Assembly: GCA_963770895.1 (NCBI GenBank)
Contig: CAVYRF010000002.1
Span: 3,264,001-3,328,000 of the forward strand
Source: an uncultured Acidobacteriota bacterium
GTDB lineage: Bacteria; Acidobacteriota; Thermoanaerobaculia; Multivoradales; UBA5704
Direction: 5' to 3'
Length of the DNA stretch: 64,000 bases
The translations under genes and the position numbers were made by a program. Of the stretch, positions 1,590-64,000 are shown piece by piece (the first letter of the stretch is position 1; each line of letters starts with the position of its first letter). The notes beneath the pieces are model-generated. The model saw nothing but the letters and a program-made list of their open reading frames with translations, was not told the origin of the DNA and did no database searches.

Positions 1590-3492
<1,903 letters not shown>

Positions 3493-35035: not shown

Positions 35036-35111
35036 GCCCAGGTAGCTCAGTTGGTAGAGCACGTGACTGAAAATCACGGTGTCGGCGGTTCAATTCCGTC
35101 CCTGGGCACCA
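35036..35111 (+). tRNA. tRNA-Phe(GAA)
   Basis: 76-nt cloverleaf from GCCCAGG to CCTGGGC-A-CCA. D-arm GCTC/GAGC, anticodon arm CGTGA-CTGAAAA-TCACG, T-loop TTCAATT. Confidence 0.98.
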
Positions 35112-62405: not shown

Positions 62406-63689
62406 TCACTCTCCAGCGGAGACCACGCCAGCCACTAGCTCGGGAGACGACGCTGCCTCTTCCGAGGAGATGCGTGTCAACTCTTCCGCCCAAGTGGCCA
62501 AGGCTTGCCTCTTCTCCTTGTCGAACCGATAGCGGTTATAGATGCTGGTCACGCCTCGAGGCTTGTGGTTCAAGATCTCAGGCACCAAGTCGCTGAAGCC
62601 GAGGCGCGCGATATGGGTGGCACAGGTCCGGCGCAGATCGTGGGGAGTAAAGTTAATGCCCGTAGCTTGCCGGACCTCTAGCAACGGCTTGCGGATCGAG
62701 GCGAGCGGCCGGCCAGGCGACCCGGAGAAGACGTAGGGCGAGCCATCTTTGCGCAGCCGCCGCTCGGCGATGACCGCTCTCGCAGGCTCCGAGAGATAGA
62801 CGCGCGACGCGACTCCGTTCTTCGAATGCGCAGCGCGCAGGTTGTACCACTCGTCGCCATCGAAGTCAGCCCAAGCCATGTGCATGGCCTCGCCCGGCCG
62901 CATGCCGGTCAACAGAATGAGCTTGGCAACCTGATAAGCGGCGTCGCCACCGTCGCCGTGGAGCTTCTGCAGGAGGGTCCGCAGCTCCCGCTCGTTCAGA
63001 TAGCGGTCCTTCGGCGTCTCCTTATTTTTCGAGATGCCCACGACGGGGTTGAAGCTCACTAGGTCCCGTTGCAGGCCGAAGTTGAACATCTTCGACAGCA
63101 GCGCCTGTAGGCGGTTCGCGGCAACCGGACCGGCGGTTACGCGGGCTTCATCGAGATAGGCGATGACCGTGCGGCGGTCAATCTCGGCAAGCGGCACGTC
63201 GCTCCATCGTGGCAGGAGCTTGTAGCGCATCGCCCGCTCGTCGGGCACAGGGTCCTTCTTCCGAATCCAGGCATGGTGCTGTAAGTACTCGGCGACGAGC
63301 TGGCCAAAGCTCGCCGGCAGGAAGCCGTCCGGCAGGAACGCCACGAGGCGACCCGCAACAGCGGTCCTGTCCGAGGCCTGGGGGCGCTCGGTCGCCGGCC
63401 CCGGGTCCACCCCCTTTGCCAGATCACCGAGAGCCGCTCGGGCTCGCTGGCGGGCCCTTGCAAGACTGATTGCCGGTGCTTCGAGCCCATAGTGACCGAG
63501 ATCCAGCCGCCGAACCTTCCGGTCCCTGGCCTTACCGGCGCTCGGTGTGCGGTACATCAGGAAGAAGCTCTTCTTGCCAGTCCGGCCCCAAACCCGAACC
63601 CCGAACCCCGCGATTCCGCCCTCGCCGTCAAAGACGTCCTCTCGCTCCTGCTGCGTCCTCAGTGCTCGCACCTGCTTATCGGTCAGCAT
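62406..63689 (-). CDS. P4-like tyrosine integrase
   Basis: Arm-binding N-terminus (MLTDKQVRAL...GFGVRV...KSFFLMYR), TGMRPGE, SKNG, HDLRRT, LNH, YNRY. GGAGG RBS. Confidence 0.95.
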   Translation of the reverse strand: MLTDKQVRALRTQQEREDVFDGEGGIAGFGVRVWGRTGKKSFFLMYRTPSAGKARDRKVRRLDLGHYGLEAPAISLARARQRARAALGDLAKGVDPGPATERPQASDRTAVAGRLVAFLPDGFLPASFGQLVAEYLQHHAWIRKKDPVPDERAMRYKLLPRWSDVPLAEIDRRTVIAYLDEARVTAGPVAANRLQALLSKMFNFGLQRDLVSFNPVVGISKNKETPKDRYLNERELRTLLQKLHGDGGDAAYQVAKLILLTGMRPGEAMHMAWADFDGDEWYNLRAAHSKNGVASRVYLSEPARAVIAERRLRKDGSPYVFSGSPGRPLASIRKPLLEVRQATGINFTPHDLRRTCATHIARLGFSDLVPEILNHKPRGVTSIYNRYRFDKEKRQALATWAEELTRISSEEAASSPELVAGVVSAGE

Positions 63690-63884
63690 GACCCCCTCCT
63701 GGCCTGATTGCCGTGCTGGTGTTAGGCTGTGTTACCCGTATGCCTGGCGGGTAACACACAGCCGGAGACAACAGGCGACACGTAACGCCAGCCAAAGACA
63801 TGTAACCTATTATACTACAGCATGATAAGTGCAGAAATGTGCAGGTGTAGTCAGCTAGAGACAAGCGCATAACGTCATGAAACA

Positions 63885-63900
63885 TGACTGAAAATCACGG
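63885..63900 (+). repeat. att site (copy of the tRNA-Phe anticodon arm)
   Basis: TGACTGAAAATCACGG, identical to 35064-35079. Confidence 0.88.
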
Positions 63901-64000
63901 GTCGAGTGGCGCGGGGGAATTTCACCCCCGCGCTCTCACGGAACCGGACGTGAGGCTCTCGCCTCATCCGGCTCTTACGATCCAGCCTCCGGTTGCGCCC
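63901..64000 (-). ncRNA. group II intron 3' end (domains V and VI; rest outside window)
   Basis: Reverse complement gives a 34-nt DV, GAGCCGGATGAGGCGAGAGCCTCACGTCCGGTTC (63974-63941, AGC triad, GAGA loop), and DVI GAGAGCGCGGGGG-TGAAATT-CCCCCGCGCC-A-CTC with a bulged A at -7 and an ...AC 3' end. Confidence 0.92.

Follow-up and report, generated by a model that had tools for sequence, protein, structure and literature searches.

Bacterial group II introns have been assigned three target specificities, namely sequence-defined homing sites, terminators, and attC sites, in the accessible part of PMC4424553. Among them, IIC-attC introns such as S.ma.I2 represent a lineage that has specialized in recombination sites belonging to a mobile system driven by an integrase, and group II introns that home into other introns are described in the same part of this source. 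The intron RmInt1, which resides in ISRm2011-2, is an endonuclease-less IIB intron that homes into mobile elements by pairing of exon-binding sites (EBS) with intron-binding sites (IBS), as described in the accessible part of PMC1802570. The literature search, which included PMC4424553, PMC7306698, PMC12584367, and PMC3552965 and did not extend to supplements or subscription journals, yielded no account of tRNA-derived attachment (att) sites as homing targets of group II introns. Here, we describe a candidate for such an intron at the right end of a 64,000-nt stretch of DNA from an uncultured Acidobacteriota bacterium, referred to as the window (G000:C2:3264001-3328000; G000 is the source genome and other G numbers are further genomes). 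The sequence from 63901 to 64000 is very probably the 3' end of a dead, endonuclease-less, IIB-like intron that retrohomed in antisense orientation into a tRNA-Phe att fragment, guided by base pairing and belonging to a lineage derived from introns with a YADD-coding target, and that subsequently received an IS21-family insertion and was truncated at its 5' end. The specificity is sequence homing, but the site is an unusual one, as it is the antisense strand of tRNA 3' halves left behind by island integration.

This lineage resembles IIC-attC introns (accessible part of PMC4424553) in being specialized for recombination sites of an integrase-driven system. It differs in that these introns target the attC hairpin, whereas the site here is a tRNA-derived att fragment of a tyrosine-integrase island that is read by sequence, and domain V has 34 nt. 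With RmInt1, as far as described in the accessible part of PMC1802570, it has in common a protein with reverse transcriptase (RT) and maturase only (417 aa here), a similar size (1881 nt here), and the use of dispensable mobile DNA as a site, but the target here is the antisense of a tRNA 3' half. The features of the window are listed in the order of their coordinates.

35036-35111, plus strand: tRNA-Phe(GAA) gene on the attL side of the island (ARAGORN; Rfam tRNA, 73 bits).
35064-35079, plus strand: tRNA-internal copy of the 16-nt direct repeat, tRNA positions 29-44, comprising most of the anticodon stem-loop plus G44.
62406-63689, minus strand: tyrosine integrase of the P4 type, 427 aa (Pfam Phage_integrase, 2.6e-16; Arm-DNA-bind_3, 4.3e-16).
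63874-63888, no strand: perfect inverted repeat gtcatg-aaa-catgac, read from the sequence and overlapping the first bases of the att remnant.
63885-63900, plus strand: attR remnant, tRNA-Phe positions 29-44; its minus strand is the 3' exon of the intron (CCGTGATTTTCAGTCA).
63901-63938, minus strand: domain VI and 3' end of the intron (...CCACUCGAC), the branch point presumably being the A 7 nt before the end (as aligned by cmscan for the identical copy at locus L006).
63941-63974, minus strand: domain V of the intron, 34 nt with AGC triad (Rfam match and cmscan alignment).
63975-64000, minus strand: last codons and stop codon (63975-63977) of the RT/maturase open reading frame (ORF); the intron runs on past the window to G000:C2:3331611.

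The tRNA-Phe(GAA) gene is the sole tRNA in the window, and with the Intron_gpII match it makes up the two matches of the window at Rfam gathering thresholds. The latter, which represents domains V and VI, aligns with the complete model (1-77) at 63901-63976 of the minus strand and scores 57.7 bits against a gathering score of 40, and the hallmarks of a group II intron, i.e. domains V and VI, the catalytic AGC, and a bulged branch A, are present at the window end. The 16 nt directly beside it (63885-63900) are identical to 35064-35079 and correspond to tRNA-Phe positions 29-44. An initial interpretation made from the letters of the window, referred to as the sequence-only reading, had let the tRNA-Phe identity end at 63900 and the intron, on the minus strand, at 63901. 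Both boundaries are confirmed by the 16-mer match, the Rfam match, and the filled and empty sites of relatives. Its placement of the insertion 6 nt from the anticodon loop is likewise correct, as the insertion point lies between tRNA positions 44 and 45. The integrase adjoins the att remnant on its left, is encoded on the same strand as the intron, and is transcribed away from the remnant; the inverted repeat at the start of the remnant might represent a core or arm site for an integrase. A promoter and terminator scan of 63600-64000 gave no match.

Synteny with nine genomes of the same genus runs to the 3' end of the tRNA-Phe gene and stops there. Because these genomes are colinear only up to this point, 35112-63884 is regarded as inserted DNA and 63885-63900 as a remnant of attR. 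At the far end of the island, positions 29-44 alone remain of the direct repeat. No colinear match marking a resumption of synteny was obtained from the flanks downstream of tRNA-Phe in G003, G006, and G001.

In the source genome the far flank of the intron is not tRNA and the intron copies are 5'-truncated, and we therefore infer homing at the window locus from relatives. Intron matches are present in all ten genomes of the genus. A full-length copy in G003 comprises 1881 nt (GTGCG...CTCGAC; Rfam D1D4-2, 93.8 bits) and encodes an intact protein of 417 aa with a YADD motif, which is 84% identical to the protein of the L006 copy. It is flanked by ...GAATTGAACCGTCGACC (also given as ...TGGTGCCCAGGGGCGGAATTGAACCGTCGACC) and CCGTGATTTTCAGTC, which are the two halves of a tRNA-Phe fragment. 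In G001, the same halves are directly joined at an empty site, with ...GAACCGTCGACC followed immediately by CCGTGATTTTCAGTC, and this intron-free fragment adjoins an integrase that is 88% identical to that of L006. The comparison of the filled site of G003 with the empty site of G001 establishes the boundary 63900/63901 and a clean antisense insertion between tRNA positions 44 and 45.

All four readable 5' junctions in the genus lie at antisense tRNA 3' halves, three of them in tRNA-Phe (two in G003, one in G001) and one in tRNA-Thr(CGT) (G005). A metagenome scan with the EBS2 signature of the lineage yielded 15 contigs, 11 of them with a recognisable 5' end, and each of these ends abuts an antisense tRNA half (seven Phe-like, four Thr-like). 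Together, 15 of 15 readable 5' junctions (four from the genus, 11 metagenomic) are located on the antisense 3' half of tRNA-Phe or tRNA-Thr(CGT), and the 3' exons of tRNA type found on four of the metagenome contigs are in all cases fragments and not genes. At the 3' side, nine of 16 intron ends in the genus are followed by the same Phe anticodon-arm remnant of 15-16 nt, three by a degenerate Phe remnant, two by the Thr(CGT) anticodon arm, and one by an RT gene, while one is unclear. One metagenome contig, L164, combines a tRNA-Thr antisense 5' exon with a 3' exon of the YADD type, i.e. from an RT gene, which suggests a recombination between copies at both kinds of site.

A coincidental 16-nt match to the tRNA beside an ordinary intergenic intron insertion could be proposed on account of the shortness of the repeat and of nothing else. 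The 16-mer occurs twice in the window and in none of 100 shuffles, its junction with the intron recurs at the nine same-genus 3' ends mentioned above, and the other tRNA half is found at the far flank in relatives, so that coincidence is refuted and its probability is practically nil.

The identity to tRNA stops within the anticodon stem at every occupied site and likewise in 11 intron-free fragments, which cover tRNA positions 26-31 to 76. Complete tRNA-Phe genes are uninterrupted in all four genomes examined (G000, G001, G003, and G006), and those of G001 and G003 are intact despite carrying a perfect target. The earlier proposal that the intron persists in dispensable copies agrees with this distribution, as it occurs only in 5'-truncated tRNA fragments. 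An antisense insertion into the real, single-copy tRNA gene would not be spliceable, and selection would be expected to remove it; because of this presumed selection, only dispensable att fragments would stay occupied. Eukaryotic retroelements such as Ty3 and TRE5-A target tRNA genes via Pol III transcription factors and insert beside the gene. They are comparable in that a retroelement exploits tRNA genes as conserved landmarks or safe havens, but here RNA-DNA base pairing would place the element inside a tRNA fragment. The introns treated in the accessible part of PMC12584367 are likewise monophyletic and bound to a single, highly conserved sequence environment. They differ in being inserted in sense orientation and spliced from an essential mRNA, whereas the introns described here are antisense to a host RNA gene and tolerated only in non-functional copies.

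The exon-binding sites are located in two hairpin loops of domain I (alignment A1); compensatory changes occur in the second stem in 6, 4 and 2 of 19 sequences. The loops were compared with the 5' exon CUACGC..GACGACU in 56 family members, where they read GCGUAG (EBS2) and AGUCGUU (EBS1) and pair with it; for EBS2, at least five of six pairs are formed in 46 of the 56, and for EBS1 all seven in 39 and six in another 16 (at least six of seven in 55 of 56). The tRNA lineage carries EBS2 GUUCAG and EBS1 GGUCAACGG in the same loops. GUUCAG can pair with UUGAAC at exon positions -14 to -9, where the near-universal T-loop lies in antisense, and EBS1 GGUCAACGG faces CCGUCGACC in G003 with eight of nine pairs. 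At the tRNA-Thr target, EBS1 GGUCAUUGG faces CCGAUGACC with nine of nine pairs, and the G000 EBS1 UGUUGGCGG, whose real 5' exon is lost, faces the antisense CCGCCGACA of G000's own tRNA-Phe, again with nine of nine. By these pairings, EBS1 and EBS2 co-vary with the tRNA-Phe and tRNA-Thr targets, which bears out the suggestion of the sequence-only reading, made together with a proposed check of EBS1 and EBS2, that antisense tRNA-Phe is recognised. In the proposed mechanism, the intron would be inserted by retrohoming into the antisense strand of the tRNA-Phe 3' half, between tRNA positions 44 and 45, at attR of a 28.8-kb island. EBS2 would find the site through the antisense T-loop and the long EBS1 would pair with positions -9 to -1, the antisense counterpart of the T-stem and variable loop, so that changes in EBS1 could shift the intron between tRNA variants and species (Phe and Thr-CGT).

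A recognition of DNA structure as in IIC introns, with a hairpin formed by the antisense T-arm (4 nt upstream) or by the anticodon arm being recognised instead of sequence, has a loose parallel in the 5-bp T-arm antisense hairpin, which ends 4 nt before the insertion site in a geometry somewhat like that of IIC targets. It is nevertheless very improbable, as domain V has 34 nt, the intron possesses EBS2 as well as a long EBS1, both of which co-vary with the exon, and relatives use the same loops for YADD codons, which form no hairpin. The features of IIC or IIC-attC introns, namely a shortened domain V, the lack of EBS2, a short IBS1, and a position behind a terminator or attC hairpin, were also not found by direct comparison (domain V of 34 nt, EBS2 present, EBS1 of 7-9 nt), in accordance with the sequence-only reading, which had recognised the full 34-nt AGC type of domain V. 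The accessible part of PMC3552965 contained no marker usable for assigning the intron to a class (D, E, F, or other).

A protein-based survey of the wider family, which is endonuclease-less, recovered 80 loci (L030-L109) from many phyla with intron proteins that are 55-82% identical. Among the 57 loci with both boundaries, 45 have the intron at a distance of one base behind the YADD codons of a different RT gene and two have it in tandem to another copy, and in none does it lie in a tRNA. The tRNA preference that the sequence-only reading had expected of homologous introns is accordingly found in close relatives (15 of 15 5' junctions) and not in these distant homologs (0 of 57). Family members aimed elsewhere, e.g. 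L045/L046, L038, and L082, show matching EBS1 changes. The wider family is similar to the nested introns of Methanosarcina in homing into RT genes, whereas the window lineage appears to have abandoned this target for tRNA fragments. The tRNA site CCGUCGACC/CCGUGAU and the YADD site CCGACGACU/UCGUGAU are identical at 13 of 16 positions from -9 to +7 (compared by eye), and on the tRNA site the ancestral EBS loops would form five to six of seven and mostly four of six pairs. In a quick IQ-TREE maximum-likelihood tree, the two proteins of tRNA type group together as a clade (SH-aLRT 99), which is placed within the YADD-type relatives. Because the tRNA site resembles the YADD target, the tRNA lineage was probably retargeted from it, by capture of a look-alike site and subsequent adaptation of the EBS loops; its source would be the widespread family whose target is the YADD-coding stretch in other RT genes.

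The copy at the window locus (L005) is dead, and the source genome holds no complete copy of the intron. Its RT/maturase frame is split by a 2617-bp IS21-family element (G000:C2:3328597-3331213; L005:1597-4213) with istA-like and IstB ORFs (IstB_IS21, 8.8e-56) and a 6-bp target duplication, and the fragments with RVT_1 and GIIM domains are separated by this element. Intron similarity ends at G000:C2:3331611 within the RT domain, with unrelated DNA beyond, and neither the 5' end GUGYG nor domains I-IV were found in this or any other G000 copy. The continuation of the tRNA at the far flank that the sequence-only reading had predicted (TGTCGGCGGTTC...) is absent, and the copy instead shows the IS21-family insertion, the end of intron similarity, and unrelated DNA beyond it. 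After homing, the locus would have been hit by the IS21-family element and have lost the 5' part of the intron with the remaining tRNA 3' half. Two copies 83% identical to this element are located elsewhere on C2, and a 1.5-kb DDE_5 insertion sequence lies outside the window at L005:5569-7083, and contig C1 carries copies of it that are 99.9% identical. A junction that omits L005 1590-4214, seen in X1 and X2 in the contig comparison, was considered as an allele free of the insertion sequence (IS) and rejected, as it is about 96-97% identical and fits an IS-free paralog of the L006 type. One contig from an RNA library (X7) spans the integrase, the att remnant, and 73 nt of the intron in a 95% relative before it diverges, and a contig of this kind cannot show strand or transcription.

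At the same att junction, the source genome carries intron copies at the window locus, L006, and L007, plus two small remnants. The L006 copy has lost about 200 nt at its 5' end, yet it encodes an intact protein of 417 aa (L006:3444-4697, minus strand) with RVT_1 (5.5e-41) and GIIM (9.4e-16) domains and no match to an endonuclease domain; a search of L006 with the Rfam domain I-IV models at a relaxed threshold gave no match. L007 retains just about 150 nt of the intron. Flanking sequence of 1.5 kb, with an integrase that is 98% identical, is common to these two loci, and the pair is for this reason regarded as a duplication. Such duplications could mean that a single old insertion in a tRNA-Phe att fragment reached further contexts as islands were duplicated and as integrases recombined within the anticodon loop, which is 9 nt away from the intron, and that the window copy never homed there. 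The anticodon stem-loop is the presumed core site of this integrase type. As the intron lies just outside it, occupied fragments might still serve as integration sites, and a newly arriving island that enters one would inherit the intron arm and carry it along by hitch-hiking. The intron-free complete 3' halves predicted by such a spread exist at G000:C2:5219984 and 5254124. On the other hand, EBS1 has tracked three target variants, including the tRNA allele of G000 itself and tRNA-Thr, which requires real homing events; the integrases of the window and of L006 share only 32% identity; and the copies have many unrelated flanks across genomes. A passive origin of the window copy is therefore unlikely, although spread by hitch-hiking and repeated homing are compatible and not mutually exclusive.

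Further observations concern the surroundings of these copies. A gene with a RadC-like JAB domain is located directly behind the integrase at the second occupied att site; the region concerned is L006:835-1845 and 1992-3191, both on the minus strand. About 2 kb from the truncated L007 copy lies a different, apparently complete group II intron (L007:371-2144, plus strand; G000:C2:5265371-5267144) with matches to Rfam D1D4-3 (100.9 bits), D1D4-1, and Intron_gpII (41.3 bits). A second cluster of tRNA-Phe 3' fragments is found 1.9 Mb from the gene at G000:C2:5219984-5220033 (L152), 5254124-5254170 (L153), and 5269083-5269229 (L007). The DNA past the first fragment (L152) resembles the left end of the window island with 77-87% identity. 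From this resemblance, the cluster is suggested to be a related island array that was moved by rearrangement or integrated at a secondary site.

Several points weigh against the interpretation of the window sequence as an intron that homed into a tRNA-Phe att fragment. All three larger G000 copies are 5'-truncated, and the first 200 nt of the intron are nowhere in the G000 assembly. Positions 45-76 of tRNA-Phe are missing at the window locus and the far flank is not tRNA, as seen by BLAST of the tRNA against G000, whose only matches to these positions are the gene itself and, 1.9 Mb away, two fragments without an intron (C2:5219984 and C2:5254124). An integrase beside the fragment is present only in the three G000 copies and at one empty site of G001, and none was seen within 1.5 kb in ten other same-genus contexts. 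The targets found so far are two tRNA species and the genome-level evidence comes from one genus, and the hypothesis already includes the EBS2 motif that was used to choose the metagenome contigs. When 401 genomes of the phylum were scanned for the pattern of GAACC followed by the intron 5' end, 30 matches in 27 genomes were obtained, none of them tRNA-like, compared with about eight control matches; four of the 30 have a GTTCRA motif and one to four of five stem pairs, and two (L118 and L138) come from the unpublished genome G189 and were used for this negative count alone. Exon pairing is poorer (seven of nine, pairs counted by eye) in L159, L166, and L171, and no EBS3/IBS3 covariation was found between Phe-type and Thr-type copies. 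The tree results from a quick search and is rooted on a very long outgroup branch. Finally, the contig comparison, which drew on four sequencing runs, is uninformative on transcription, splicing, mobility, excision, and attB/attP junctions.

The antisense homing of the intron into attR would have consequences for the island. For elements integrated into tRNA genes, the standard model holds that the 5' part of the tRNA at attL becomes connected to the chromosomal arm at attR upon excision. Integrase-mediated excision would here join the 5' part to a broken arm and destroy the only tRNA-Phe gene, which is single among the 69 tRNAs of G000 in an assembly with about 5% of the genome unassembled. 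Because the attR arm lacks positions 45-76 and tRNA-Phe is single, precise excision would presumably be lethal and the island effectively fixed, i.e. locked in place. A more far-reaching reading, which is tentative and somewhat doubtful at present, would recognise a fourth kind of bacterial group II targeting, in which a fixed EBS2 anchor on the T-loop and a re-writable EBS1 allow hopping among att fragments, and in which the occupation of attR makes excision rebuild a broken essential tRNA and thereby fixes islands.

The lineage documents retargeting in nature, as its EBS1 and EBS2 appear to have moved from a YADD-codon target to a look-alike tRNA target, and this record is useful for targetron work and for understanding natural shifts in intron specificity. 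It also links two mobile systems, as the spare tRNA 3' half required for excision is lost from attR once an intron occupies it. Occupied islands are accordingly predicted to be non-excisable or lethal to excise, and if this is true, intron homing would be a simple and testable route to island fixation.
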